Notes under the pieces: generated by a model
Databases searched by the model: none
What the model was told of the DNA's origin: nothing
Seen by the model: the letters and a program-made list of their open reading frames with translations, nothing else
Made by a program: the position numbers and the translations under genes
Shown: positions 12,840 through 52,400 of the stretch, one piece after another
How the letters are laid out: each line of letters begins with the position of its first letter
How positions within the stretch are numbered: the first letter of the stretch is position 1
Origin: a virus
Length of the DNA stretch: 64,000 bases
UHGV virus genome: UHGV-0371537
Reading direction: 5' to 3' (one strand)

Positions 12840-12845
12840 GAAAAA

Positions 12846-12878
12846 GGGGATAGAGCAATAATACCCTATCCCCTTTTA
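12846..12878 (-). terminator. hairpin with flanking T-runs (terminator or attenuator) inside the early gene run
   Basis: GGGGATAGAGCAATAATACCCTATCCCC with TTTT on both sides; adjacent to the recurring TTATTGAAGAACG motif. Confidence 0.45.
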
Positions 12879-12896
12879 TTGAAGAACGATTAGTCT

Positions 12897-15623: not shown

Positions 15624-15660
15624 GAAAGGGGAACGGGCTAATATTAACCCATTCCCCTTT
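15624..15660 (-). terminator. hairpin with T-run (terminator or attenuator)
   Basis: GGGGAACGGG-N-CCCATTCCCC followed by TTTATTGAAGAACG. Confidence 0.45.
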
Positions 15661-15685
15661 ATTGAAGAACGCAATCGCAATCAGA

Positions 15686-20868: not shown

Positions 20869-20921
20869 CTGTTTGTCAAAGGGTTAACAGGGGGAATTAT
20901 ATCCCCCTTTGGTTTATTGAA

Positions 20922-24865: not shown

Positions 24866-25324
24866 TTATTCTTCCCAGAAGTCGTCATCGTCGCCGACGG
24901 CGGCCAGTTCCGTGTCCAGGTCTTCATCGGTGAACGGTGGCAGCACCCCATTCTGAATCAGATAGTCCATCTCATCGTCTTCCAGCTGCAGGTCAGTGGC
25001 AATATACAGCGCTCCGCTGCCCTCTTCGTCCGTTTCGATGCTGTATGAAGTGTATGACACCCCATTCACTGTAATGATGACAGACGTTGGATCCTCGGGA
25101 TCTACGTGAGCCTCGAACGGCACACCATCAATCGGCGCATCTTCCAGGAAAGTGGCGAGGGCTACTGCAGCACGGACAACATCAGTGCCTTCAACGCCTG
25201 CATAGATCTCTTCCGCGCCCGTCTCTTCACGATCAAACAGTTCAATCGTGATACCGTCTTGAACACCAGTCCATACAGGGATGTCATTGGTGTGTTCTGA
25301 TTCAAACAATTTGGAGGTTGGCAT
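24866..25324 (-). CDS. hypothetical acidic protein
   Basis: 152 aa, highly acidic (DEDLDTELAAVGDDDDFWEE); CTAAATA late-promoter-like element upstream. Confidence 0.5.
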   Translation of the reverse strand: MPTSKLFESEHTNDIPVWTGVQDGITIELFDREETGAEEIYAGVEGTDVVRAAVALATFLEDAPIDGVPFEAHVDPEDPTSVIITVNGVSYTSYSIETDEEGSGALYIATDLQLEDDEMDYLIQNGVLPPFTDEDLDTELAAVGDDDDFWEE

Positions 25325-25347
25325 GTTGGGTTCCTCAGTGGGTTAGC

Positions 25348-25365
25348 CATATGGGGTATTTAGGC
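25348..25365 (-). promoter_or_regulatory. late-promoter-like CTAAATACCCCATATGG upstream of the acidic protein gene
   Basis: Minus-strand reading GCCTAAATACCCCATATGGCTAAC about 30 nt upstream of the ATG at 25324. Confidence 0.45.
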
Positions 25366-25824
25366 TTCCCGCACTGCCAGGCCGGGTTTGTACAGAACGA
25401 TCTCACGAACCATAGGCAGACCAACACGGTCAAGAATGATCGTGGAGTCGTAGCCCTGGGAGATTAGCTCGGCGGCGTTCTCATGGATCTTACCCGGTTC
25501 GATACCAAGTTCACGCATAGCGTCTTCCCAGGCCGAAACATTATTAGAGTCGAGTTCGAGGGGCTTCTTAACACTGACGTTAAACACCAGAACATGGGGT
25601 TCACCGCTCTGGCGATAGCGAACGGCGTTCTCAGCATAGCGCTGCGCCTCTTCTTCGTTGCCTGTCAGATAGAACCCAGGTCCCATCGTACCGCAGTCAG
25701 TCTGGCCGAAGCGCTCAAAGTCGAAGACATCGAATTCTACGTTGGAGCCGTGAAAGAGGCGCATGTTACCGAACTTGGGTTCAGCCTCAGACGCCTCTTT
25801 AAGATATTCAAGAAAGGTTTTCAT
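25360..25824 (-). CDS. capsid-targeted mini protein with PARP-like (H-Y-E type) ADP-ribosyltransferase motifs
   Basis: N-terminus MKTFLEYLKE resembles the T4 internal-protein capsid targeting sequence (MKTYQEFIAE); downstream LFHGS, GPGFYLT and VREIVLY spaced like PARP H-G-S, G-x-G-I-Y-F and N-E-Y-I-V-Y; late-promoter-like CTAAATA plus inverted repeat immediately upstream. Confidence 0.6.
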   Translation of the reverse strand: MKTFLEYLKEASEAEPKFGNMRLFHGSNVEFDVFDFERFGQTDCGTMGPGFYLTGNEEEAQRYAENAVRYRQSGEPHVLVFNVSVKKPLELDSNNVSAWEDAMRELGIEPGKIHENAAELISQGYDSTIILDRVGLPMVREIVLYKPGLAVREA

Positions 25825-25826
25825 AG

Positions 25827-25857
25827 ATACCCCACACTGGTTGTATGGGGTATTTAG
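25827..25857 (-). promoter_or_regulatory. late-promoter-like CTAAATA plus 8-bp inverted repeat (ATACCCCA / TGGGGTAT) abutting the start codon of the PARP-like gene
   Basis: Minus-strand reading CTAAATACCCCATACAACCAGTGTGGGGTATCT-ATG. Confidence 0.5.
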
Positions 25858-34871: not shown

Positions 34872-36650
34872 ATGGCCACACAAACAGTTCCCTCACTCGA
34901 TGTCAGAACATACGAGTTCCTTCTTAAGAAGCGAATGAAAGCAGACCCGACCTTCAAAGACTATGATTTTGAAGGTTCCGGCCTCAGTGCCATCATTCGC
35001 CTCTTGGCCTCGGATGCCAATGCCGTCGGGTTCATGCAGAACATGCTGAATGGCGAAAGCCATCTTCACTCTGCCCAACAGCGTTCCAACGTCGGTCTTG
35101 CGGCGGGGTTCCTTTCATACACCCCTGACAACTACAAGGCTGCGTTCCTGTATGCCAACGTAACAGTCACACCGTATGATCCAACAACTGCCCCTGAAAC
35201 GATCGTAATCGATCGACGTGCGATGTTTATTGGTGCAAAGGATGGCAAGTCATACAACTTCACTGTCGAAGCCCCGGCGAGTGCTACTTTGGTGGATGGG
35301 TCTTACAAGTTTGAAAACCTGAAACTGATCCAGGGCAACTGGCTGTACAAGTCATATGATGTCGAAGGAAGTGCGATCTCGTCTTATGTGATCCCTTCTT
35401 CAACTGTAGACATCAATCATATGGTGGTACAGGTGGCGGCTTCGGATACAGCCGATGAGACCAGCACGTACTCTCGTTATGTCAGCCCATTTGACCTGAG
35501 TCAATATGCTCAGCTCTACTTTGTGGAACTTGGCCTGGATGGGATGTACACCTTCGAATTTGGAGATGGGTACATCTGCAAACGTGTGGAAGATGGGAAC
35601 GTCATATATCTACAGTACCTGGAAACGTCTGGCGAAGATGGCAACGACATCACCTCTTTGTCTTCAGCTTCTTCCATCGGTGGATTCAACCTCGTGGATG
35701 TTGAACTGGTGTCCGAGCGTTCTTCCGGTGGTGCGCCACCAGAAAGTATCGAAGACACGAAACGCCTTGCTCCTCTGGCCTACCAGGCCGAGGGCGCGGC
35801 TGTAGCTGAGATGGATTACGCTGTTCTAACAGAACGCTTGTTCTCCAATGTGTCACGCGCCAAAGCATATGGCGGAGATACGCTCTCTCCTCCCGACTCC
35901 GGCTATGTCTACATTGCTGTCATCCCTACTACTGGTGAGTCACTTTCGGACGCGGAGAAGGCAGATATCGTGGCGACGTTAGATAAGTACAACGTTGGCA
36001 CCATCACACCAAAGATCGTCAACGCCGACATCACGTATATCGACGTGACAACAACGGTGTTCTGGGATTCAACATCTACAGCATACAACGAAGAGCAATT
36101 GAAAACCGTTGTTGTAAACGGGGTGCAAAACTGGGGCGCATCTAATCTTGAAGGGTTCGAAGAGTTGTTCGACAAAGAGCAACTGCAAGAAGCCATCACC
36201 AAGATGGATCGTTCTATCGCTTCCAACATCGCTTCGGTGAAATACAAACGTCACTTTAAACCAGATTACGGCGTTCTGGATAGTTTCACTTTCGATTTCG
36301 ACAGATCTATCGCTTCTGGTTCGGTGCGCATCAGTGGGTTTAAACCTCTTCCGGCTGAAGTTGATTTCACGTACTACATACGAGACGTCAATGGTGTGTT
36401 GAATATGTACAAGGTGAGCACCGCCGACACGACGAAAGAATATCTTGTACAGGCTGTGGGTACTGTAGACTATGTGAATGGTGTTGTGGAATTACAGCAG
36501 ATCACAGTTTCGAATTACAACGCCGAAGGAGTAACGATTGTGGTGTCTCCTGATGGACTGAACCAGAACCTACAGGCTGTGCAGAACCAGGTGCTCCGCA
36601 TCGGTGCAGTAACTGTCCTGCCGGAGGTGCGCTATGTCCAAAGATCTTAA
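34872..36650 (+). CDS. gp6: baseplate wedge protein (T4 gp6 / P2 gpJ-like)
   Basis: N-terminal FKDYDFEGSGLSAIIRLLA matches the T4 gp6 N-terminal region (FLDYDFEGSRLNVL) as I recall it; start set to the ATG preceded by GGAG (ORF track begins at an in-frame GTG at 34857). Confidence 0.8.
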   Translation: MATQTVPSLDVRTYEFLLKKRMKADPTFKDYDFEGSGLSAIIRLLASDANAVGFMQNMLNGESHLHSAQQRSNVGLAAGFLSYTPDNYKAAFLYANVTVTPYDPTTAPETIVIDRRAMFIGAKDGKSYNFTVEAPASATLVDGSYKFENLKLIQGNWLYKSYDVEGSAISSYVIPSSTVDINHMVVQVAASDTADETSTYSRYVSPFDLSQYAQLYFVELGLDGMYTFEFGDGYICKRVEDGNVIYLQYLETSGEDGNDITSLSSASSIGGFNLVDVELVSERSSGGAPPESIEDTKRLAPLAYQAEGAAVAEMDYAVLTERLFSNVSRAKAYGGDTLSPPDSGYVYIAVIPTTGESLSDAEKADIVATLDKYNVGTITPKIVNADITYIDVTTTVFWDSTSTAYNEEQLKTVVVNGVQNWGASNLEGFEELFDKEQLQEAITKMDRSIASNIASVKYKRHFKPDYGVLDSFTFDFDRSIASGSVRISGFKPLPAEVDFTYYIRDVNGVLNMYKVSTADTTKEYLVQAVGTVDYVNGVVELQQITVSNYNAEGVTIVVSPDGLNQNLQAVQNQVLRIGAVTVLPEVRYVQRS

Positions 36651-38710: not shown

Positions 38711-38751
38711 CTAAATACCCCTAGATGAAACGAACACATTTAGGGGTATTT
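38711..38751 (+). promoter_or_regulatory. late-promoter-like CTAAATA followed by an 11-bp inverted repeat (AAATACCCCTA / TAGGGGTATTT) upstream of tailspike 4
   Basis: Read directly in sequence; the same module recurs upstream of other late genes. Confidence 0.5.
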
Positions 38752-38754
38752 GAA

Positions 38755-41736
38755 ATGGCTAATAAACCAACACAGCCTGTTTTCCCTCTCGGTCTGGCGG
38801 CTGAAGAGCAGTCTACTTTGGCTGGTGTCCTCAACACGGGTACGATTGAGCATGGACCAGATGCTGTCCTGACTTTACCAGAGGGTAATGCCAGCGCAGG
38901 ACTCCCGTCTTCCGTTCGCTACAATGCCGACTCCGACGAATTTGAGGGCTTCTATGAAAATGGTGGATGGTTGCCGCTGGGTGGCGGTGGTATCCGCTGG
39001 GAAGTCCTTCCGCATGCCTCTACGGCAACGCTCACTGAAGGGCGAGGCTATCTCATTAATAATACCACAGGGGCATCTACAGTGGTTCTCCCTTCCCCTA
39101 CGCGTATTGGGGATTCCGTTACTATTTGTGATGCTTATGGGAAATTTGCCACTTACCCATTGACCGTGTCTCCTTCTGGAAATAATTTGTATGGCTCCAC
39201 TGAAGACATGGCTATAACAACTGATAACGTATCAGCAACGTTCACTTGGTCTGGACCTGAACAAGGTTGGATTATTACATCCGGCGTCGGTCTTGGCCAA
39301 GGTCGTGTCTACAGTCGTGAAATCTTTACAAAAATTTTGGCGTCTGAAACAAGTTCTGTCGCTCTCAATACTCCACCAACAATTGTGGACGTGTATGCTG
39401 ACGGAAAACGTCTTGCGGAATCCAAATATTCACTAGATGGGAATGTAATCACTTTCAGTCCTTCTTTGCCAGCCAACACAGAACTTCAGGTGATTGAATA
39501 TACTCCTATTCAATTGGGTAATGTCAGTGGTTCTGGTTCTTCTACGATTACCTGGGTCTATAATGGGGGTTCAGCGATTGGTGGTGAAACCGAAATCACG
39601 TTGGACGTCGTTGTTGATGATGTTCCGGCCATTGATATAAACGGAAGTCGCCAGTATAAAAATCTGGGATTCACATTCGATCCATTAACCAGTAAAATCA
39701 CTCTTGCGCAAGAACTGGAACCAGAGGATGAAGTTGTTGTAATTATCAATGGAACACCAAACATCTATAATCAAATTGATTATACTTTGCGGGAAGTTGC
39801 TCGAGCAACCAATGTTAAAGATACAGAGGTCGTTTATTTTAGTGTTGGTGCTGCGTTAAGTGGGTATAAAGTTATTTATGACAAGGAGACGCAAAGGGCT
39901 TATCCCTTGCCTGCTGATATTGTCCCTGGTACTACTGCTGTCAGTCTTAGTTCTTCCGCTATACTTGTGCATTCTGCTGGTAGTGTTGATCTGGGCGCAT
40001 TAGCTGTATCTCGTGAAGAATATGTTACATTGTCTGGGACATTTGATTCTGGTGCTGTCATCAATGTTAAAAATGAATTACTCACCCATACTGATGGAAA
40101 GTATCGTTGGGATGGTACACTTCCTAAAACCGTTGCTCCTGGCTCAACTCTTATGACAACAGGCGGCGTTGGTGTTGGCGCATGGATTAGTGTTGGTGAT
40201 GCTTCATTGAAGTCAGAATTGGCTAAACCTACAGGAGCAGGTTTTTCAGGTTTTGATAAGTCAATTGATTACGAAACTGGTACTGTTGGCAATGCGCTTA
40301 AGAAAATTATAAATGTCAACCCGGATATGTATCCATCATTACAGGATGCGATTGATGCTGCGGCAGCTTTAACAGGTTTAGAACATGCACCAAGTAGTGC
40401 TGCTAACCATCCTGACTGGCTACAACCTAACACTGTAAGCAAAGTTATCAGGCTGAATGGGAAGAAATATCCTATCAGTACGACACTACACATTCACGGA
40501 GATGTTAGCATTGATGCTGGTTTCGGTGGGGTGTACCTCACCGATGACTTCGTTGCAGACTCCTCTGGCTATGCTGTTAAATGCGATAAAGGGACGGGTA
40601 ATCAATACGCTGGGCATATCAGCAACTTATTAATTGATGCCCGTGCAAAAACTGTTAATGGGTTTAAGATATCCGATGGCTATGCTAACAAGTTAGAAGG
40701 CATTTACGTAGCCAACGTTGATGGTCATGGCATCCATATTGCTGGCGGTATGGGTGTGCACCTATTGAAGTTTTATGCTGTTGGTGTATTAAAACCAACT
40801 AATCCGCTCAGCACAGCCCACATTGTTGAAGGTAGCGATCATCAGGTTAGCATGGGTGAAGGTCGTTATTTCCGATTTGGTACCTGGGTTCGTGGTGGTG
40901 GTAATAACAGAATTGGTAAGGTGCACAACTGGGGCATGTATGACGATACAGTCACCGACCAGAACTCAAGGATGAAATGCTGCTTTGTTGTACAGAACTC
41001 AATAAACAATTCCTTCAATCAATGTTTTGCAGATTCTCCATCAAAATGGGACTACACGAAAGCTAATTTAGATCCTGTAGATGGTTATATTAACGGCGGG
41101 ATTGGTTTTTTTATTGATGGTGGAGCCACCGGTAATACGTTCTCTCAATGCCAGACGTTTGTGAATATGAATGCGTTTAATGACGCAGGGTTATCTGCAT
41201 ATGCGGCATCACTAATGCCATTCGCCGTTGGCAGTATCAATTGCTCATTCATTGAGTGTGAAAACTCAAACTCACCAGCATGGGTGGCAAGACTGATAAC
41301 TCATATTTACTCTGTGGATCAGGCATTTACTAACATACTCGCAGCTAAGAATTTTGTTGGTATAGAGTATGATATGGTTTGCAATGGTACAATTTTCAGG
41401 AAAAATGTTGGAGTTCCTGTATTGGTAAGAAATTCAAAGTTCGAGACGCCAACAGCAAGTTATGCGCCTAACTTTTCAGACGCATCTTACATCGCAGCTA
41501 CAGTTACAGGAGATGTAACAATAACACCAGCAGTATTAACAAATACACTAATTGGTTATGTTGAGGTTCTTTTGGCTGTCTATTCAACAACATCTAAAAC
41601 AATAACATTTGGTGCAAATGTTATATTAGCAAGTAGTACCCCATCTTTGACAGCAGCTGGAACACAAGTTTTTAGGTTGTCAACAACTGATGGAGGAACG
41701 ACTTGGTTCTGTAAGTTCGAGAGTGCTTACCCGTAA
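38755..41736 (+). CDS. tailspike / tail fibre protein, paralogue 4 (extended N-terminal anchor region plus shared module plus distinct C-terminal domain)
   Basis: Contains the about 150-aa module shared by all four paralogues (VVYFSVGAALSGYKVIYDKETQRAYPLP...GKYRWDGTLPKTV...GAWISVG); Gly/Asn-rich C-terminal region; start set to the ATG after the inverted repeat (ORF track begins at 38725). Confidence 0.75.
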   Translation: MANKPTQPVFPLGLAAEEQSTLAGVLNTGTIEHGPDAVLTLPEGNASAGLPSSVRYNADSDEFEGFYENGGWLPLGGGGIRWEVLPHASTATLTEGRGYLINNTTGASTVVLPSPTRIGDSVTICDAYGKFATYPLTVSPSGNNLYGSTEDMAITTDNVSATFTWSGPEQGWIITSGVGLGQGRVYSREIFTKILASETSSVALNTPPTIVDVYADGKRLAESKYSLDGNVITFSPSLPANTELQVIEYTPIQLGNVSGSGSSTITWVYNGGSAIGGETEITLDVVVDDVPAIDINGSRQYKNLGFTFDPLTSKITLAQELEPEDEVVVIINGTPNIYNQIDYTLREVARATNVKDTEVVYFSVGAALSGYKVIYDKETQRAYPLPADIVPGTTAVSLSSSAILVHSAGSVDLGALAVSREEYVTLSGTFDSGAVINVKNELLTHTDGKYRWDGTLPKTVAPGSTLMTTGGVGVGAWISVGDASLKSELAKPTGAGFSGFDKSIDYETGTVGNALKKIINVNPDMYPSLQDAIDAAAALTGLEHAPSSAANHPDWLQPNTVSKVIRLNGKKYPISTTLHIHGDVSIDAGFGGVYLTDDFVADSSGYAVKCDKGTGNQYAGHISNLLIDARAKTVNGFKISDGYANKLEGIYVANVDGHGIHIAGGMGVHLLKFYAVGVLKPTNPLSTAHIVEGSDHQVSMGEGRYFRFGTWVRGGGNNRIGKVHNWGMYDDTVTDQNSRMKCCFVVQNSINNSFNQCFADSPSKWDYTKANLDPVDGYINGGIGFFIDGGATGNTFSQCQTFVNMNAFNDAGLSAYAASLMPFAVGSINCSFIECENSNSPAWVARLITHIYSVDQAFTNILAAKNFVGIEYDMVCNGTIFRKNVGVPVLVRNSKFETPTASYAPNFSDASYIAATVTGDVTITPAVLTNTLIGYVEVLLAVYSTTSKTITFGANVILASSTPSLTAAGTQVFRLSTTDGGTTWFCKFESAYP

Positions 41737-41798
41737 AACTAACCCCCTCTTCGGCAGGGTTCTTGTTATACCTTTGTTCATAAATTTATTAGTTCAGC

Positions 41799-41836
41799 CT
41801 AAATACCCCATATTGGTCATCCTTTATGGGGTATTA
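41799..41836 (+). promoter_or_regulatory. late-promoter-like CTAAATA plus inverted repeat (TACCCCATA / TATGGGGTA) upstream of tailspike 3
   Basis: Near-identical to the module at 44337-44373. Confidence 0.5.
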
Positions 41837-41838
41837 TC

Positions 41839-43788
41839 ATGATTTCTCAATTCAATCAACCACGCGGCTCCACTTCCATAGAAGTTAACAAACAATCTAT
41901 CGCTCGAAATTTCGGTGTCAAAGAAGACGAAGTCGTTTATTTCACTGCTGGTATTGATCTCAGTGGATTTAAAGTAATTTATAATGAGTCTACCCAACGG
42001 GCTTATTCTCTTCCTTCAGGTATTGTTTCAGGAACGACTGCTGTTAGTCTTAGTGCTAACGCTGTTCTTATGCACTCAGCTGGTTCTATAGACCTCGGAG
42101 AATTAGCCGTATCTCGTGAAGAATACGTTACATTGCCTGGGTCATTCACCTCGGGTGCTACGCTTAATGTTAAAAATGAATTGCTTACCCATACAACAGG
42201 CAAGTATCGCTGGGACGGGGAATTTCCTAAAACCGTTTCTGCAGGTTCTACCCCTGAATCTGCTGGTGGTGTTGGTCCTAGTGCGTGGGTTAGTGTTGGT
42301 GTTGCTTCTTTAAGAGCAGACCTGGAAAAACCAACAGGGGCAGGATTGATTGGATTTGGCTGTTCTCCATATATAAATAGAAATATTGGAGATGTTCTCC
42401 AGGATATACCAACGAACAAATATTTTGGTGCAAAGTGTGATGGCGTAACTGATGATACTGTAGCTAACCAAACTGCACTTGATTGGTCTGCTGACAATAA
42501 AAGAGATGTTATTTTTGTTGGAAAAAGCTGCATAACAAGCAGACTTGTACACAATTCAGGCTCCAGGGTAACACATCTTGGAGAGATCAAACCTCGTGAT
42601 TTTTCTGATGATGTTGTTATTGAGGTAAAGGACGATGCGTGGCGTGATCCTTACAATGATGGAATAACAGCAATCGATACTGGCGATAGAGTTCATATTG
42701 ATGGTCTATGTATTGCCCCTGACTCTGTAATAGATGCTGTTGGTATTCTTGGCACTGATGGAGTGGATCCGATCATATCAAGATTAAGAACATTCAACAT
42801 GAGAAGGGGAGGAATTAAGATTGTTAAGGGGTATGGATGGAACATATCAAACATTTCAATCATTGCACCTTTTGATCAAAATAACTCTCATGATTATGCA
42901 GGAATTAGGCATGAAACGTCAGATTCATTTTATTCTAGCGTTATAGTTTCAGGATATACTACTGGACTTGATATGCCTGGAAATGCTAATCAAGTATCAA
43001 AGGCCCACTGCTGGGGAATGTCATTACCAGATAGAACCACTCGTAATATGTTATTCGGCCTTAAAATGAGCGGTAGTGGTAATAACGTAGTGCAATTCTA
43101 TTCTGATTCTCCTAAAAAAATTGATAAAACACAAGCTGCAAGCATTACAAATGGTGGGATTGGCTATGTAATTTCTGGTTTTAACAACACATTTTTATCA
43201 CCTAGGAACCTATCTCATCAGGATTGTGGCTTGAAATATGGTAAGGTTTTTCTGATATCTGGTTCTGAGAATACCTTTATTAGCCCCTTAATAGGTGATT
43301 ATGACTACATTGAAGATGATGGATTTTTCACATTTACAGATTCGGCAAGCCCGCTAAACAACTATGTTTATGGTGGCAACATGCAATCTACATATTTGTA
43401 CCCAATTGCAAGTGGTAGCTATAAACCAACTGTAAACATCCCATGCACATACAGCTCTCAAATATATAACCATAATATCATTCAGAAAAATGTTATGGGA
43501 AGAGTTGTTATTACATGCAATATTACAAGTAATTCATCCGACGATCCATTCTATATACAACTGCCACCTTATCTATCAGCTGTATCTGGGATGGCAAGTG
43601 GATCAATAATTAACAACCTTACATCGTCAGTAAGAGCTGATAGCAACCTTTTTGCAGTCGAACCTTATGTTTCAAATGGTAAAATCTACTTCCGTAGATT
43701 ATTTAGATCTGGAGCTGCTGATGATATAAAGCAAAATATGCTTAACACAGGTAATGCTTTCTTTGATATATCAATAAATGCAAGATAA
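41839..43788 (+). CDS. tailspike protein, paralogue 3 (shared module at N-terminus plus distinct C-terminal domain)
   Basis: N-terminal region VVYFTAGIDLSGFKVIYNESTQRAYSLP...GKYRWDGEFPKTV homologous to the other three paralogues. Confidence 0.75.
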   Translation: MISQFNQPRGSTSIEVNKQSIARNFGVKEDEVVYFTAGIDLSGFKVIYNESTQRAYSLPSGIVSGTTAVSLSANAVLMHSAGSIDLGELAVSREEYVTLPGSFTSGATLNVKNELLTHTTGKYRWDGEFPKTVSAGSTPESAGGVGPSAWVSVGVASLRADLEKPTGAGLIGFGCSPYINRNIGDVLQDIPTNKYFGAKCDGVTDDTVANQTALDWSADNKRDVIFVGKSCITSRLVHNSGSRVTHLGEIKPRDFSDDVVIEVKDDAWRDPYNDGITAIDTGDRVHIDGLCIAPDSVIDAVGILGTDGVDPIISRLRTFNMRRGGIKIVKGYGWNISNISIIAPFDQNNSHDYAGIRHETSDSFYSSVIVSGYTTGLDMPGNANQVSKAHCWGMSLPDRTTRNMLFGLKMSGSGNNVVQFYSDSPKKIDKTQAASITNGGIGYVISGFNNTFLSPRNLSHQDCGLKYGKVFLISGSENTFISPLIGDYDYIEDDGFFTFTDSASPLNNYVYGGNMQSTYLYPIASGSYKPTVNIPCTYSSQIYNHNIIQKNVMGRVVITCNITSNSSDDPFYIQLPPYLSAVSGMASGSIINNLTSSVRADSNLFAVEPYVSNGKIYFRRLFRSGAADDIKQNMLNTGNAFFDISINAR

Positions 43789-43792
43789 ATAA

Positions 43793-43821
43793 GTAGAGCA
43801 GCAACATGATTGCTGCTCTAC
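43793..43821 (+). terminator. rho-independent terminator after tailspike 3
   Basis: GTAGAGCAGCAACATGATTGCTGCTCTAC hairpin followed by TTTCTC. Confidence 0.6.
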
Positions 43822-43849
43822 TTTCTCATACAACCTAATTGAAGTTAGT

Positions 43850-43977
43850 GGGTATATTACAGGAGGTAAAATATTCTTTAGAAGGTTATTCAGAAGCGGC
43901 TCTCCTGTTGATGTTCAGATAACAGATCTGATAACAGGTTATGCATCAATAGACTTGAGCTTTACTTGCCAGCTATA
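43850..43977 (+). pseudogene. remnant of a tailspike 3' end (second copy of the C-terminal about 40 codons)
   Basis: Translates to ...GGKIFFRRLFRSGSPVDVQITDLITGYASIDLSFTCQL*, homologous to the C-terminus of the upstream tailspike (...NGKIYFRRLFRSGAADDIKQNMLNTGNAFFDISINAR*). Confidence 0.5.
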
Positions 43978-43982
43978 AACAA

Positions 43983-44002
43983 AAACCCCGCTTCGGCGGG
44001 GT
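43983..44002 (+). terminator. terminator hairpin AACCCCGCTTCGGCGGGGTT (copy 1)
   Basis: Perfect GC-rich hairpin with TTCG loop; a second near-identical copy lies about 295 nt downstream. Confidence 0.55.
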
Positions 44003-44278
44003 TAGTTTTATCATCAGAATGGTATTGAATCACTGTTGGTAATAGTAGGCTCATTGCCTCTTGGTTGGTTTGGATGCTGTTCAGTATAACCGGTTCCAAC
44101 CAAACCAATGAGGCAGTGGGTAAGGGGGGTTTTTGTTGTACCCCAAACAATTCATTAGGTAGACTGTTTTAGTCAATTACGACTTAACTAACCTGAGAAA
44201 ATCCCTATGGGAAATGAACCAGATAACGTAACTCTAGCCAGACTCGAAGAGAGACTGAGAAACATTTTCGAAAACCAA

Positions 44279-44298
44279 AACCCCGCTTCGGCGGGGTT
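44279..44298 (+). terminator. terminator hairpin AACCCCGCTTCGGCGGGGTT (copy 2)
   Basis: Same hairpin as 43983-44002, followed by the conserved late-promoter cassette. Confidence 0.55.
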
Positions 44299-44336
44299 CT
44301 TATTATATCCATGTTCATAAATTTTATTAGTTCAGG

Positions 44337-44373
44337 CTAAATACCCCATATTGGCAAATCCTCTATGGGGTAT
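44337..44373 (+). promoter_or_regulatory. late-promoter-like CTAAATA plus inverted repeat upstream of tailspike 2
   Basis: CTAAATACCCCATATTGG-N-TATGGGGTAT, as upstream of tailspike 3. Confidence 0.5.
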
Positions 44374-44379
44374 CTTCAA

Positions 44380-47022
44380 ATGACCAGAAACGTCGAGAGC
44401 ATCTTTGGAGCGGTCGTAACAGCTCCGCACCAGATTCCATACACTTACACAGCAACGGGCGGAGAGAAGTTTATCTCCCTCCCGTTCTATCCTGTTACGG
44501 GCTTCATCACCATCAATGGGGGTGTTCAGGTTCCGACAGACAATTTCGAAATCGATGGTAACACTGTCAACCTGGGTCGAGCACTTGAGACCGGGGATGT
44601 TGTGTATTGCTTGTTTGACAAGATCCTGTCTCCAGAAGATTATGAAAACGGGATCCGCATCTACAAGTTCCAGACCGTTGGTAACGAGACCTCATTCACC
44701 CCAGACTTCACGACATATGGTGTGCAGTCTCTGTATGTTGACGGGAAGTTCCAGGTGCCGGACGTCAACTACACGTATTCCCCAACCAATGGTGTCGTTA
44801 ATTTCCTGACTGGATCTCCGGCGGCTGGTGTTTGGGTTGTTGCAGAAATGTCTGTGAAGCAGCCAAACATTTCCCCTCTCTTCGATAGAACAATTCAAGA
44901 AGTGGCCAGATCTGCGAAAGTTAAGGACTCGGATGTTGTTATCGCTGTATCCGGTGCTTCACTTTCTTCCAAGAAAGTCATCTTTGATAAAACTGCGCAA
45001 AGATGGTACTCGCTGTCAACCGGGTTGACTTCCACGGTGGTCAGTTTGGTTGATGGAATCCTCACTCACTCTTCAGGTACTGTTGATTTAGGTGCGCTGG
45101 CGGTTACTCGTGGCGAATATTTCACCATGTCTGAAACCTTCACAACCGGGTTCACAATCAGAGTGAAGAATGAGATCGTCAGCGACGGAACATATCTTTA
45201 TCGCTGGGCTGGTAGTTTGCCAAAAGTTGTTTCCGCTGGAACAACCGTGGACAACACCGGGGGTGTGAGTGCGAGTGCCTGGGTGAGATCAGATCAAAGA
45301 ACCATCAGCACCGTCAAGAGACAACTACAGCAATCCTACACGATGGCAGAATTAGTGGCCAAAACTGACATACAGTTGGGCGACTCTTTCCTTTGCTCGG
45401 ACAGGGCATATGGTGTTTATGACGTCGTTTCTTCGGTGGCTTACCCACCAAATGGTTATTCGAACGTAGTCAGCACAGTGAACTCCGGTTTGGTGTTCAG
45501 ACTGCGTGTGGTTGCTAACACAATCGATTTGGAGCAAATTGGTGGTAAGCCTCTCATCTGGGGAACCCAAGAAATCGACTGTAAACAGGCGTTGCAGGAA
45601 GCTTTCTATCTCTTGCTCGACTCCGAGAGCGCGACGGTTGATCTGAAGTCCAACAAATGGTTGCTGTCATCTTATGTGTTCAACGACGTCAAACAGCGCC
45701 GGAAAATTGTTGGTAACAACGCCATTATCTATGGGATGCCAGATGACGGTGTGACCAACTATGATTACCTGGTGAGTACTGCATGGAACTACCAAGACAT
45801 CGAAGGTGTTACGTTCGACTGTCAGTGGAACCCTCGTTATGCATGCTGTCTCCGTATCACTCATGGGTACGGACGATACGATGGCCTGACGATTCGTAAA
45901 GCTCGTTGCGCCATTCAGGTTGGTAAGAGCGAGGAAAGCCGGGTCAGCCTCAGCGAATTCATGTTCACACAACTTCGCACTGAAGAATGTGCGAAAGTCG
46001 CAATTGTTCACGGGCTTTATTCTGTGCTTAACATCAGCGATTCCATCGTGGCTTGCGGCGAGGGCGCTTTCTGGAAAACATATGACTGTACCGGGTTCAC
46101 CATCTATGGTGGTCGCGTATTCCTGATGAAATGTGGGGGCAACAGCAACGTCATCAACTTAGACAACCCTTATGTCTATTGCGCAAATACCACGGTTGCA
46201 GGCGCTCCATATATCGGTTCGTTCAACGCAGTGCAGTGCGACTTTGAATTCAGGACTCGCTTCTGCATCGTGAACGATACGACGACAGTTTATCAAGATT
46301 ACAACCAAGCAGTTGTTCTTGATTCTTGCCGAATTGGTGTATTCGCCAGCCTGGACTCTCGTGCGTTGAATTTCTTTGAAAGTAACGTCGGATACCGTGG
46401 GCAGCTCCGGATTAAGAACACAGATCTTCTGTTCGACACCACCGTGTCTCTGCCGCCGATCAAAGCTGGTGGGCATACCATCGTGGATATTGATTATGAT
46501 TCGATCTACATTCCTAACTTCAGGGGTCCAAAGATGGTCAGCTTCGCTGGTTATCCTCCGGTTCTTCCAGTCGGGATTGTGTTCCAGAACAACGTTGGGG
46601 CTGACACTCCTCTTTCTGGTAACCAGTTTGTGAACTTTTCTAACCCGATCATTGGCTTGGATTCTGATTCCTCTCTGCTTAGCAGCAACTGGAACTCGTC
46701 CACCAAGAAATTCGAATTGCCTCCTGGTGGCTTGAGTGATGTTACCGTCACTGTACGTCTGACATTGAAAGATCCTGCCACCGCCCCGGTGACAGCGTTG
46801 GTGGAATACAACAACGGCACAGCGATTGGACTTGCATTCGGGACAATCCCGGTTGGATCCAAAGATCTTTTGATCACTGGCAGGATCCGGGATCTTCGAG
46901 ATACAGCCCAGATATATTGTATCACGAGTTCTACAGCGGCGTACACCCTCAGCAATACCGGGGCATATGACTCTACTATGACAATTGAGGCCAGCATTCG
47001 GCCTCCGAAGACTAAAAGTTAA
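44380..47022 (+). CDS. tailspike protein, paralogue 2 (N-terminal extension plus shared module plus distinct C-terminal domain)
   Basis: Shared module VVIAVSGASLSSKKVIFDKTAQRWYSLS...GTYLYRWAGSLPKVV; start set to the ATG after the inverted repeat (ORF track begins at 44365). Confidence 0.75.
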   Translation: MTRNVESIFGAVVTAPHQIPYTYTATGGEKFISLPFYPVTGFITINGGVQVPTDNFEIDGNTVNLGRALETGDVVYCLFDKILSPEDYENGIRIYKFQTVGNETSFTPDFTTYGVQSLYVDGKFQVPDVNYTYSPTNGVVNFLTGSPAAGVWVVAEMSVKQPNISPLFDRTIQEVARSAKVKDSDVVIAVSGASLSSKKVIFDKTAQRWYSLSTGLTSTVVSLVDGILTHSSGTVDLGALAVTRGEYFTMSETFTTGFTIRVKNEIVSDGTYLYRWAGSLPKVVSAGTTVDNTGGVSASAWVRSDQRTISTVKRQLQQSYTMAELVAKTDIQLGDSFLCSDRAYGVYDVVSSVAYPPNGYSNVVSTVNSGLVFRLRVVANTIDLEQIGGKPLIWGTQEIDCKQALQEAFYLLLDSESATVDLKSNKWLLSSYVFNDVKQRRKIVGNNAIIYGMPDDGVTNYDYLVSTAWNYQDIEGVTFDCQWNPRYACCLRITHGYGRYDGLTIRKARCAIQVGKSEESRVSLSEFMFTQLRTEECAKVAIVHGLYSVLNISDSIVACGEGAFWKTYDCTGFTIYGGRVFLMKCGGNSNVINLDNPYVYCANTTVAGAPYIGSFNAVQCDFEFRTRFCIVNDTTTVYQDYNQAVVLDSCRIGVFASLDSRALNFFESNVGYRGQLRIKNTDLLFDTTVSLPPIKAGGHTIVDIDYDSIYIPNFRGPKMVSFAGYPPVLPVGIVFQNNVGADTPLSGNQFVNFSNPIIGLDSDSSLLSSNWNSSTKKFELPPGGLSDVTVTVRLTLKDPATAPVTALVEYNNGTAIGLAFGTIPVGSKDLLITGRIRDLRDTAQIYCITSSTAAYTLSNTGAYDSTMTIEASIRPPKTKS

Positions 47023-49445: not shown

Positions 49446-49454
49446 ACTAAATAT
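49446..49454 (+). promoter_or_regulatory. late-promoter-like ACTAAATAT upstream of the 1612-aa gene
   Basis: About 35 nt upstream of the ATG at 49488. Confidence 0.4.
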
Positions 49455-49487
49455 CTCTATAATGACACCTATCGATGGAGCATCAAA

Positions 49488-52400
49488 ATGCAAGAAATGA
49501 ATCTAAACCGTCGCCCATACTGGGATGACTGGAACCCTGAGAAGCGTTTTTCGCGCATCTTATTCCGTCCGGCTCCGATCAAAGTACAGACGCGCGAACT
49601 GAACCAGATGCAGACCATCTTCCAGGATCAGCTGGAGAAACTCGGGAATCATCTGTTCAAAGATGGCTCAATGGTTATCCCCGGTGGCCTGACGATCACC
49701 AACACAGCCGTATCGATGAAGTTCACTCTGGCTGGTGGCACTGAATTCACCGACCTTGAGAACATCGCAGAACTGTATGTTCTGGGTAAAGACAACAACG
49801 CCAAGGCGCGCGTACTGTCCCTGGAGCGCTATGTTTCGGAACCAGACACGATGTATGCCATCCTGGAGATGACAGAGAGCGGTTCATCTGACGGCTTTGG
49901 TGTCGGAGACAATCTGTACTTCAACACGTACGACGTGAACGATAACTTCATCCGTATCGGTTATGGCGTTGCTGCGACTGTCGGCGGTTCTATTGTCGCA
50001 CGTATGACCAAAGGCGTTTACTTCGTCCGTGGCATGTTCCTGGACGTTGAGCCAGCGACTCTGATCGTCGACAACGCATCCAACTCTACTTCACACCGTG
50101 TGGGGTTCAAAGTAACAGAGACCATCGTTACTGAAGTAGAAGACGAAAGTCTGTTCTCAAATGCTCAGGGGACTCCGAACTCTAAAGCCCCCGGCGCGCA
50201 CCGCTTCCGCGTGGATCTGGTGCTGTCTCGCTTCGGTTATGACGAAGAAGTGTCCGACTTCGTTGAACTGGCGAAAGTCAAAGACGGGCGCATTCAGTCC
50301 ATGGTGACCCAGTCCACTTACAACATCCTCGAAGACAGTATGGCTCAGCGCACCTATGAGACCAACGGGGATTACAACGTCTCCACTCATCAGATCGACC
50401 TGCGCGAACACCTGAAAGAGAACAACAACGGCGGCGTTTACACTCCGGGCGAAGGTGGTGATGCAAGCAAATTCGTGGCTGTCATGAAGCCGGGGATCTC
50501 CTATGTTCGTGGTCGTCGTATCGAGAACCTGGGCGAAGAACTGGTCACCATTGACAAGGCGCGGGACACCGATATCCTGAACAACAACCCTGTGGCTGTG
50601 GCGACGGGCAATTACCTCGTGTCCAAGAACTCCAAAGGGGTTCCAGTTATCTCTCGCACGATCCGTTACAAGTTCCTGAACGCCTCAAGCGCGACTCAGG
50701 CCACAGCACTGCTGATTTCAGCGGAGCGCTCTGGCGCCGAATTCCGTCTGTACATGCGTGATCTGGTTGTGACCGGAGATATGGGTACTGTCACCAAAGT
50801 TGCATACGAAGAAAGCGGTACAACAATGTTCTCTTGCGACCTGGAATCTAACCAGTTCAGCCAGAGTTCGGCGATTGACCTGATCTTCCCTCTGCCTGTG
50901 TTTGGGGTGAAGACCCTGGCACCTACTGGCACCATCGATATCAACTACACTGTCCTGCGTTCTAACAAAATCACGTTGAACGCTGCTGGTGCTGGCTCCA
51001 TCTCTGCTCCTTTGGGTTACAGCTTCAGCCCCGAATTCTCTCTGTATTCGGCGGCGAAGGCAGATGGAACTGCGGCTCAGTTCGATATCTCCTCCGGCCT
51101 GTCCCTGACGGGTACGCCAGTGGGTTCCGCTCTGCAGATCTCGCTGGGTGCTGGCTATGCCAACCAGTCCATCAACCTTCTGGCTCTGATGGTGCGCACC
51201 ACAGCAACGATCAAGACCAAGACTGCCACTGAAGTTACCGAGACTGTGACGTTCACGGCTGCGACCAGTGTGCAGCTTGGGAACCATGATGGGTACAAGC
51301 TGATCAGCGTGAAGAACGCAAGTGGTGCTGACGTCACTTCTAACTTCACTCTGGATGGTGGTCAGCGTGATGCTGCGTACTATCGTTCTAACCTGTTATC
51401 GGGCACTGGAGCCATTTCAGGGACGTTCACGGTGGTGTATCAGTATTTCGCTCACAGCTCTGGTGATTTCTTCACAGCGGATTCCTATTCCTCCATCGAT
51501 TACCCAGACATCCCGAACTATGTTTCATCCAGTTCCGGTACTGTGTATGGTCTGGCCGACAGCCTGGACTTCCGTCCTAAGATCACCGGCGGCGCTTCCG
51601 ACACCGACATGGTTCGCCCGAACACTGCTATCGTTCTGGATGCAGAGTATTATCTTCCGCGCATCGATGCTGTGTATCTGGCCGACAACGGCGTGTTCAA
51701 CGTTGCGCGTGGTGTGAGTTCCAACAACCTGGCTTCGCCTGCGATCCCAGACAACGGCATGCGTCTGTACGAATTGATGATCCCACCTTACACAGCGAAC
51801 ATCGACGACATTCAGATTCGTACCATCGACAACCGCCGTTACACGATGCGCGACATCGGTAAACTGGAGACCCGCATCTCCAACGTTGAGTATTACACCT
51901 CACTGTCTCAGCTGGAATCTTCAGCGATGACTCAGCAGGTGTTCGACCCAATTACTGGCAACCCGCGCTTCAAAAACGGCATCGCCGCTGATCCGTTCAA
52001 AGACTTCCGTCTGATTGACGACCTGTCTGCAGACTGGGTGGGTTCAATTGATACTGACAATGGACGCCTGCGCCCGTTTGTCCAGCAGAACGCGATTGAC
52101 CTGACGCCAGTCGGCTGGAACAATGTCCAGGACGGCATGGTCGTGTGTAACTACACCCGCGAGATCTCTGTACGCCAGGATTATGCGACCACGACTATCA
52201 ACGTGAACCCGTATGCAGTGTTCAACTGGGAAGGTTTCCTGAAACTCAACCCAACTACCGACTACTGGTTCGAGAACTACTATGTTGCTCCACGTGTGAT
52301 CAACGAAACGATCAACACACGCGGCGCGATCAAAGAAGGTTCTGTGTATGGCACATGGCGTACTGTGTCAGTGTCTGAACGTGTGTGGGAACCGCATGGT

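Follow-up and report, generated by a model that had tools for sequence, protein, structure and literature searches.

Late-promoter boxes overlapping inverted repeats in tailspike and other gene leaders of an Ackermannviridae-like phage: a probable case of T4-type hairpin-gated translation

The virus genome UHGV-0371537 was analysed here as a stretch of 64,000 nucleotides (the window, meaning this whole stretch), whose nearest relatives by megablast are Agtrevirus/Limestonevirus members of the Ackermannviridae (ViI-like phages), namely, Ag3, SKML-39, EspM4VN, and vB_CECAV_050, with about 91–95% identity where alignable; gp6 of the window is 95.8% identical to gp6 of Dickeya phage LIMEstone1. 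The baseplate genes and a cluster of four tailspike protein (TSP) genes occupy 34.8–49.3 kb, and the DNA polymerase gene, tRNA genes, and small genes lie on the minus strand at 20–34 kb. Our subject is a leader element found in both regions, in which a promoter-like box, CTAAATA, overlaps the 5′ arm of an inverted repeat whose 3′ arm holds the ribosome-binding site.

The extended box CTAAATACCCC is present five times in the window, at 38711, 41799, and 44337 on the plus strand and at 25857 and 25363 on the minus strand, each time as an exact match to the Ackermannviridae motif CTAAATAcCcc. Four of the five sites, upstream of the genes for TSP4, TSP3, TSP2, and an ADP-ribosyltransferase (ART), are followed by an inverted repeat of 10–16 bp, whose 5′ arm is in every case overlapped by the box:

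38711–38757, plus strand: TSP4 module; box 38711–38717, arms 38712–38727 and 38737–38752, loop 38728–38736, ATG 38755
41799–41841, plus strand: TSP3 module; box 41799–41805, 5′ arm AATACCCCATA 41802–41812, 3′ arm TATGGGGTATT 41825–41835, ATG 41839
44337–44382, plus strand: TSP2 module; box 44337–44343, 5′ arm ATACCCCATA 44341–44350, 3′ arm TATGGGGTAT 44364–44373, ATG 44380
25822–25857, minus strand: ART module; box 25857–25851, 5′ arm ATACCCCATAC 25853–25843, 3′ arm GTGTGGGGTAT 25837–25827, ATG 25824
25322–25363, minus strand: acidic-protein leader; box CTAAATACCCC 25363–25353, overlapping the ART stop codon, ATG 25324

The 3′ arms of the four modules end 2–6 nt 5′ of the ATG and contain (U)AUGGGGUAU, the sole Shine–Dalgarno-like element of these modules, with GGGG(U) 5–9 nt from the ATG; the chance probability of GGGGTAT occurring no more than 40 nt downstream at at least four of the five sites is 5e-9. 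A first-pass annotation of this DNA, which had offered a “conserved translation-initiation region” as one reading of the repeat, was thus half right only, in that the downstream arm is the ribosome-binding site. Folded as RNA, the four modules yield −17 to −21 kcal/mol, with z-scores from −3.0 to −8.5 relative to dinucleotide shuffles. The TSP4 stem has 16 bp, two of them G·U (arms AAAUACCCCUAGAUG / CAUUUAGGGGUAUUU, GGGG Shine–Dalgarno at 38743–38746), and its leader shows −21 kcal/mol, z −8.5, and a covariance model match with E-value 1e-6. The respective values are −20.5 kcal/mol, z −4.9, and 1.5e-8 for the 11-bp stem of TSP3 (AAUACCCCAUA / UAUGGGGUAUU), −17 kcal/mol, z −3.0, and 6e-9 for the 10-bp stem of TSP2 (AUACCCCAUA / UAUGGGGUAU), and −17.9 kcal/mol, z −4.3, and 3e-7 for the 11-bp stem of ART, which includes one U·G pair (AUACCCCAUAC / GUGUGGGGUAU). 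An Rfam scan of the window returned five tRNAs only, no family reaching its gathering score at the hairpin modules.

The fifth site differs. The first-pass annotation had ascribed the module to five genes; its box coordinates hold at all five and the repeat at four, since the acidic-protein site has the CCCC box without a partner arm. This leader has no downstream arm and no structure (z +0.44), a canonical GAGG Shine–Dalgarno being present instead, and the inverted repeat is missing in eight relatives as well; as judged by its sequence, it is a plain late-promoter leader.

The shorter box CTAAATA is found 11 times in the window against 3.6 expected, a count reached in none of 100 shuffles, and nine of the 11 boxes lie 31–49 nt 5′ of the start codon of a long open reading frame (ORF) on the same strand (rough binomial probability 2.5e-16), the genes behind them being gp6, the tailspikes, neck, sheath, and others. 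The whole genome of Ag3, joined from four annotated stretches, has 19 CTAAATA sites, 14 of them just upstream of correctly oriented genes; virion genes with a box are gp48, gp6, TSP4, TSP2, TSP1, the gene for a 1612-aa structural protein, gp14, sheath, and gp22, and the others are uvsW, orf174, orf220, the acidic protein gene, and the ART remnant. The motif search that the first-pass annotation had proposed as a check thus gives enrichment and correct placement, and its view of CTAAATA as a T4-like late-promoter core is borne out by the position of the boxes before virion genes, both here and genome-wide in Ag3. The TAAATA core is what a gp55-type late promoter, with its −10 box resembling TATAAATA before virion genes, calls for, and the sequence data support CTAAATA as the Ackermannviridae version of T4 TATAAATA.

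These results agree with the literature. CTAAATAcCcc is one of the “two unique regulatory motifs” that the EspM4VN paper gives for these phages (PMC7283392), is traced to Adriaenssens et al. (2012) in two citing papers (PMC7283392; PMC9965104), and is already used or regarded as the Ackermannviridae late promoter (PMC9965104). Ackermannviridae encode homologues of the T4 late-transcription proteins gp55, gp33, and gp45 (PMC3121705; PMC3184105), which in Ag3 are annotated as orf122, orf76, and orf165, respectively, at loci outside the range of the window. The promoter half of the module is, then, already known, and the hairpin half is undescribed, the complementary downstream arm being unmentioned in the Ackermannviridae literature searched, which did not cover the original 2012 motif paper.

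Simple CTAAATAT boxes had also been noted before gp6, the gene for the 1612-aa protein, the gp14-like gene, and the sheath gene. All these boxes are present, but gp6 proved to have a hairpin, as does an endonuclease gene on the minus strand. The remaining leaders with a box are as follows:

34823–34877, plus strand: gp6 leader; box 34825–34831, AUCUUCA/CACC 34831–34842 pairing with GGUG/UGGAGAU 34856–34867, AUG 34872
31756–31793, minus strand: endonuclease gene leader; box TTAAATA 31793–31787, 5′ arm TAAATAGCATC 31792–31782, 3′ arm GGTGCTATTTA 31768–31758
49447–49490, plus strand: plain late box of the 1612-aa virion protein gene; ATG 49488, GGAG Shine–Dalgarno, no significant hairpin (z −0.53)
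56703–56736, plus strand: plain late box of the gp14-like neck gene; ATG 56734, GAGGA Shine–Dalgarno, no local hairpin (z +0.98)
60978–61029, plus strand: plain late box of the tail sheath gene; ATG 61027, weak UCUUUC/GAAGGA pairing only (z +0.21)
55960–55966, plus strand: relic late box, remains of the original gp14 leader interrupted by an antisense endonuclease gene, 55960–56676 (minus strand)

The 3′ strand of the gp6 hairpin (−17.5 kcal/mol, z −3.3) holds the GGAG Shine–Dalgarno, and an outer stem, 34823–34827 with 34873–34877, covers the AUG; the arm sequence differs from that of the CCCC class, with the same layout. The 11-bp stem of the endonuclease leader (−12.3 kcal/mol, z −2.3) reaches the A of the ATG (31758), and the 213-aa product matches phrog_15137 (8e-68). 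In the late genes that lack the repeat (those for the acidic protein, the 1612-aa protein, gp14, and the sheath), the ribosome sites are ordinary GGAG, GAGG, or AAGGA, and plain boxes are followed by TCTTC or TATTT.

Some observations concern the surroundings of these leaders. At 31756–31830 (minus strand), the endonuclease gene directly follows an apparent tRNA 5′ half (GGTCCTGTAGCTCAGTGGTTAGAGCA), complete tRNA genes being found downstream, which suggests insertion of the gene in or beside a tRNA gene. The antisense gene at 55960–56676 encodes a homing-endonuclease-like protein (238 aa, phrog_681, 2e-59) and lies inside the equivalent of the Ag3 gp14 leader; that leader is a box with a hairpin in Ag3, and the insertion left a relic box in the window and in Dickeya phage phiD3, where the relic also keeps the first gp14 codons. 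In both the window and phiD3, gp14 has a new plain box.

In order to assess specificity, stems starting in or next to TAAATA and ending no more than 14 nt from a start codon were counted in a hexamer scan. Of the TAAATA sites, six out of 28 in the window and 10 out of 44 in complete Ag3 have such box-type hairpins, and ten control hexamers yielded 0–4 sites each; hence, the hairpin is specific to TAAATA leaders. Further, the 5′ segments of the leaders match their own Shine–Dalgarno regions (CCCC–GGGG, UCUUC–GGAGA, CCUUC–GAGGG, and GCCC–GGGC): the mean duplex energy is −9.3 kcal/mol versus −5.7 ± 0.66 kcal/mol when partners are permuted, a value reached in 0 out of 20000 permutations. When 49 window genes are ranked by occlusion of the ribosome site, box leaders take five of the top seven places (Mann–Whitney p = 0.011). 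The Shine–Dalgarno sequence and/or the start codon lies within a stable helix, as in T4-type leaders, the stems having −17 to −21 kcal/mol. The mean probability of the Shine–Dalgarno being unpaired is 0.00–0.21 in modelled RNA that reads through from upstream and keeps the stem, versus 0.34–0.46 in modelled late RNA, whose start was taken about 6 nt after the box, as in T4, and which folds at just −3 to −5 kcal/mol.

The pairing is conserved across genera. Loci homologous to that of TSP4 were retrieved from 14 IMG/VR contigs and from Dickeya phage phiD3, Klebsiella phage Magnus, and Serratia phage 2050H1. An IMG/VR pattern scan served for inner-stem variation and for leads only, as it is biased (a hit must have both arms) and picks up many ordinary terminators. 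Modules were found in Kuttervirus, Agtrevirus, Limestonevirus, Taipeivirus, and Miltonvirus. The alignment comprised 30 distinct modules (four genera); pairing holds in 94.2% of its cells versus 84% in shuffles, and the covariation score is 0.25 versus 0.066, the observed level being reached in 0 of 500 shuffles; sliding the partner by 1–3 columns lowers pairing to 33–57%. The three inner pairs vary among AU, UA, CG, GC, GU, and UG, and G·U pairs occupy 11 pair cells in 11 of the 30 modules (12 of 34 in a wider set). The spacing between CCCC and GGGG (13–21 nt), the stem length (10–16 bp), and the loop length are all variable.

Individual leaders illustrate the compensation. The TSP4 stem CCCCUAG-AUG:CAU-UUAGGGG becomes CCCCUAG:CUAGGGG in Taipeivirus, a change from G·U to G–C, and CCCCUAAUG:CAUUAGGGG in Miltonvirus. 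The ART stem CCCCAUAC:GUGUGGGG changes to GUAUGGGG in one lineage (U·G to U–A) and in Miltonvirus is CCCCAAUG:CAUUGGGG, with three pairs altered on both sides. By reading, UCUUC of the gp6 stem corresponds to UCUCC in Taipeivirus, and the Miltonvirus stem is GCUCU:GGAGU. On this sequence evidence, the inverted repeat is real and under selection. In the distant Vibrio members K388 and Kuja, CTAAATA precedes late genes with no clear CCCC/GGGG hairpin, so that the hairpin may be confined to the enterobacterial genera.

The hexamer scan and a covariance model built from the modules brought up additional leaders with box and hairpin in Ag3, beyond the range of the window:

orf174: AAAUACCCCCAU / AUGGGGGUAUUU, −18.7 kcal/mol, z −4.9
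gp14: box and hairpin, −11.4 kcal/mol, z −2.9
endolysin gene: box TTAAATA, AAAUACCUUCGCA / UGCGGAGGUAUUU, −18 kcal/mol, z −5.5
RuvC-like resolvase gene: box GTAAATA, GUAAAUAGCCCAUA / UAUGGGCUAUUUAC, ending at the AUG, −20.9 kcal/mol, z −4.9

The endolysin leader is kept in 17 and the resolvase leader in 20 IMG/VR relatives, with wobble and compensatory changes, and the Kuttervirus resolvase box is the canonical CTAAATA.

Three simple accounts of the repeat were rejected. An intrinsic terminator is not compatible with the lack of a U-tract (T-run), with an ATG within 2–6 nt, and with the silence of the terminator scan at the modules; the downstream arm does not provide an antisense promoter, its bottom strand being CAAATACCCC or ATAATACCCC and not the box; and chance or simple duplication disagrees with the site statistics and with compensated conservation in Agtrevirus, Limestonevirus, Kuttervirus, Taipeivirus, and Miltonvirus.

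Considering the sequences, the folding models, and the analogy with T4, we regard it as probable that these leaders are gated in the manner of T4 e, 49, soc, and I-TevI, with the late promoter inside the 5′ strand of an RNA hairpin that hides the Shine–Dalgarno sequence. A transcript from an upstream promoter would carry both strands, fold the 10–16-bp stem, and hide the ribosome-binding site; the upstream source would be an early-type promoter for the ART gene and the gp6 late operon for TSP4. A transcript from the embedded box would begin about 6 nt past the box, at or beyond CCCC (the start position is taken from T4), and would therefore lack the 5′ strand and be translatable. With the read-through RNA silent and the late RNA open, the gene would therefore be translated only from its own late promoter. 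The transcript start positions, the read-through RNA, and the effect on translation are what we infer.

Upstream transcription across the modules is plausible from the gene arrangement. The gene upstream of TSP4 ends (stop codon 38700–38702) 8 nt short of the box, the interval has no terminator, and the scan reported none between the gp6 promoter and the TSP4 module either; RNA initiated at gp6 would therefore have to cross this module. For the ART gene, the candidate source is the following:

27821–27846, minus strand: early-type promoter motif TTCAAT-N14-TAAAAT, one mismatch to the family motif

This motif (27846–27821) heads an operon that runs from 27780 through the genes for a pyridoxal phosphate (PLP) enzyme, ART, and the acidic protein. 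No terminator-like site is predicted on the minus strand between 27780 and 25857, the stop codon of the PLP-enzyme gene (25866–25864) is 6 nt before the ART box, and we infer from the sequence that RNA started at 27846–27821 reads through the ART module. The early-type motif of the family, TTCAAT-N14-TATAAT, is found in copies within strong terminator-like hairpins at 12858–12883, 15641–15666, 20896–20921, and 27821–27846, all on the minus strand; for example, the hairpin AAAAGGGGAUAGAGC...GCUCUAUCCCCUUUU at 12840–12875 (−29 kcal/mol, z −6) is directly before an ATG. Early promoters, too, thus seem to be built into hairpins, as terminator–promoter units.

Premature translation of a lysis enzyme or a junction resolvase, the classes to which T4 e and 49 belong, is harmful. 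The endolysin and resolvase genes with box-containing hairpins fall into the same functional classes, which is the strongest circumstantial support for T4-type gating.

Several points weigh against this interpretation. The only promoter seen upstream of the tailspike genes, that of gp6, is itself late, and thus the tailspikes would be gated without early/late timing; the terminator-like hairpins upstream of TSP3 and TSP2 would lower read-through. The A/T-rich stretch right 3′ of the box, a trait of T4 late promoters, is absent in the CCCC class, which is G/C-rich there, and CCCC may also act in the promoter itself, since the acidic protein gene has a CCCC box without a hairpin. The sequences of the covariation set are mutually related and partly come from the pattern scan, so that, the pattern having fixed CCCC and GGGGTAT, only the inner pairs and the loci collected by homology are unbiased. 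Finally, the literature searched yielded no data on Ackermannviridae transcript 5′ ends or translation.

The tailspike genes admit a variant of the interpretation. Their spacers contain terminator-like hairpins:

44279–44298, plus strand: terminator-like hairpin AACCCCGCTTCGGCGGGGTT, about 40 nt upstream of the TSP2 box
41741–41760: degenerate copy of this hairpin, upstream of the TSP3 box

At TSP3 and TSP2, terminator, box, and hairpin form a repeat unit of about 100 nt that comprises a terminator, a promoter, and a gated ribosome site; TSP1 has no box in the window and would be co-transcribed with TSP2. It is conceivable, if rather doubtful, that the tailspike hairpin is an insulator and not a timing device, each gene being a closed unit that has a terminator, a late promoter, and a gated ribosome site of its own. 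With translation of each spike confined to RNA from its own promoter, the amounts of the four spikes needed for the branched complex would be equalised, and whole tailspike cassettes could be exchanged between phages without a change in expression.

We consider it unlikely that transcripts start no later than the box, or come from late promoters further upstream, and that the hairpin thus works within the functional late mRNA, either as a stabilising or processing stem-loop or in translational coupling, being opened by ribosomes from the upstream gene. The tailspike cluster is one co-directional late block, and the upstream genes end close to the box (with a stop codon within it at the acidic protein gene, and 6–8 nt short of it at ART and TSP4), as would suit such coupling. 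However, the stems begin 10 nt past the stop codon, a distance at which a ribosome terminating there would presumably open the first pairs at most; boxes without a hairpin occur at the same 31–49 nt from the ATG of other late genes, as fits a promoter; and the 3′ arm is always the Shine–Dalgarno, which fits repression and not protection.

Action of the repeat in double-stranded DNA, as a palindromic operator for a dimeric regulator of the late promoter or as a cruciform that aids promoter opening, appears improbable. The upstream arm overlaps the box, so that a bound protein would control initiation, and T4 I-TevI indeed binds over its own late promoter and represses it (PMC2988022). The first-pass annotation had named action at the DNA level as one option, reasoning that the RNA would hold only the downstream arm; that argument fails for transcripts started upstream, which would contain both. 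An operator would be expected to show fixed spacing and a conserved half-site, but the half-site spacing (13–21 nt) and stem length are not fixed, and the arms of gp6, endolysin, resolvase, and endonuclease keep complementarity and not sequence. Moreover, the G·T/T·G positions interconvert with G–C and A–T in the sense-strand direction only; G·U is compatible with pairing in the sense strand alone, since the opposite strand would have A·C mismatches. An RNA hairpin is thus favoured over a DNA palindrome because of the variable spacing, the sense-only wobbles, the complementarity of unrelated arms, and the identity of the 3′ arm with the Shine–Dalgarno.

Very improbable is a role of the leader as a homology patch for swapping tailspike cassettes by recombination, the inverted repeat being incidental: the TSP3 and TSP2 leaders do have about 100 nt in common, the loop sequence and terminator-like hairpin among them, near-identical across Kuttervirus, Agtrevirus, and Taipeivirus though the receptor-binding parts differ, but such a patch, which could co-exist with hairpin gating, leaves the complementarity, the covariation, and the non-tailspike clients (ART, orf174, endolysin, resolvase, and endonucleases) unexplained.

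Some side observations relate to the genes served and their neighbourhood. The TSP3–TSP2 spacer (43791–44336) contains about 550 extra bases, with a perfect 15-bp hairpin at 43791–43823, two identical terminator-like hairpins (43984–44003 and 44279–44298), and a minus-strand ORF of 62 aa without a family match; the spacer is possibly what is left of a cassette that was lost or exchanged. A gene for a 449-aa adhesin- or tail-protein-like product (29403–30752, minus strand; phrog_17426, 7e-151) has tRNA genes as its neighbours and is remote from the tailspike cluster. The product of the ART gene (25824–25360, minus strand) matches the ADP-ribosyltransferase family ART-PolyVal (Pfam PF18760, 2e-10). 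A late-expressed ART is reminiscent of the packaged Alt enzyme of T4. The gene is present in the window, Limestonevirus, and Miltonvirus, and mostly deleted in Ag3 and some contigs, the deletion leaving two late boxes about 90–100 nt apart (Ag3 142142–142242; contig L012 230–316). In the tRNA region of relatives (Ag3 137958, plus strand; contig L001 2598, minus strand, and its relatives), a small Aeh1p176-like gene has a CTAAATA box and an unrelated hairpin of 10 bp, ACCAGUUGUU / AACAACUGGU, in which part of the GGUGAG ribosome site is covered; both gene and leader are absent from the window.

The layout was also encountered outside the family. In the biased pattern scan, CTAAATACCCC-loop-GGGGTAT-N-ATG precedes nuclease genes in non-Ackermannviridae IMG/VR contigs, identified as T4-like myoviruses by PHROGs (tail sheath, clamp loader, and ribonucleotide reductase). 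The clients are SegE-type GIY-YIG (contigs L082 and L140), NUMOD3 (L102), PDDEXK (L057), and DUF723 (L075) genes; the client in L073 has no Pfam match and, by eye, a GIY-YIG-like N-terminus. One possibility raised by these sequences is that CTAAATACCCC/GGGGTAT is a portable promoter–hairpin cassette common to homing endonuclease genes of uncultured T4-like phages.

If the leaders are gated, the odd “cCcc” tail of the known motif would be explained, as it pairs with the GGGG ribosome-binding site in four of the five CCCC leaders of the window, and the T4 trick of a promoter-hidden ribosome site would be widely used in a second phage family, endolysin and Holliday-junction resolvase included. 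Retargeting of phages by exchange or addition of Ackermannviridae tailspike genes is under way (PMC9965104; PMC11414711), and expression of such constructs should depend strongly on whether the 5′ arm is retained and whether a foreign promoter upstream drives transcription.

These leaders probably represent, by analogy, a new example of gating known from T4. On long, upstream-started transcripts of T4 e, 49, and soc, an inhibitory helix masks the ribosome site, and the late promoter lies in the DNA of the 5′ strand; late transcripts without this strand are translated, the difference being about 100-fold for gene e (PMC3014915). Experiments have established this mechanism for e, 49, soc, and I-TevI. 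Hairpin-gated homing endonuclease genes are known as well, namely, I-TevI, I-TevII, I-TevIII, and segB of T4 and mobE of Aeh1 (PMC2988022). Gene e offers a parallel in layout, as the box here likewise falls in the 5′ strand of a helix masking the Shine–Dalgarno or AUG, and the endolysin gene of Ag3 and its relatives has the same layout. Differences are the box, [C/T/G]TAAATA and not TATAAATA, the G/C-rich arm of the CCCC class with GGGG(U) as the Shine–Dalgarno, and the clients, which include tailspikes and an ADP-ribosyltransferase. The ribosome site would be masked as in genes 49 and soc, a box-containing 14-bp stem of the Ackermannviridae RuvC-like resolvase ending at the ATG; since RuvC-like proteins and endonuclease VII, the product of gene 49, are non-homologous, this parallel is in regulation only. 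I-TevI, segB, and Aeh1 mobE are matched by the window endonuclease gene at 31758 (minus strand), with its box and hairpin, and by the SegE-type genes of the T4-like contigs, but the clients in this phage are for the most part ordinary genes of the phage and not mobile endonucleases. As to the promoter itself, T4 has its late box about one helical turn upstream of the transcript start, with A/T-rich DNA downstream of the box. The present box resembles TATAAATA in being a single −10-type element before virion genes, with no conserved −35 element by eye, and differs from it in the first two positions (C-TAAATA) and, in the CCCC class, in having no A/T-rich stretch.

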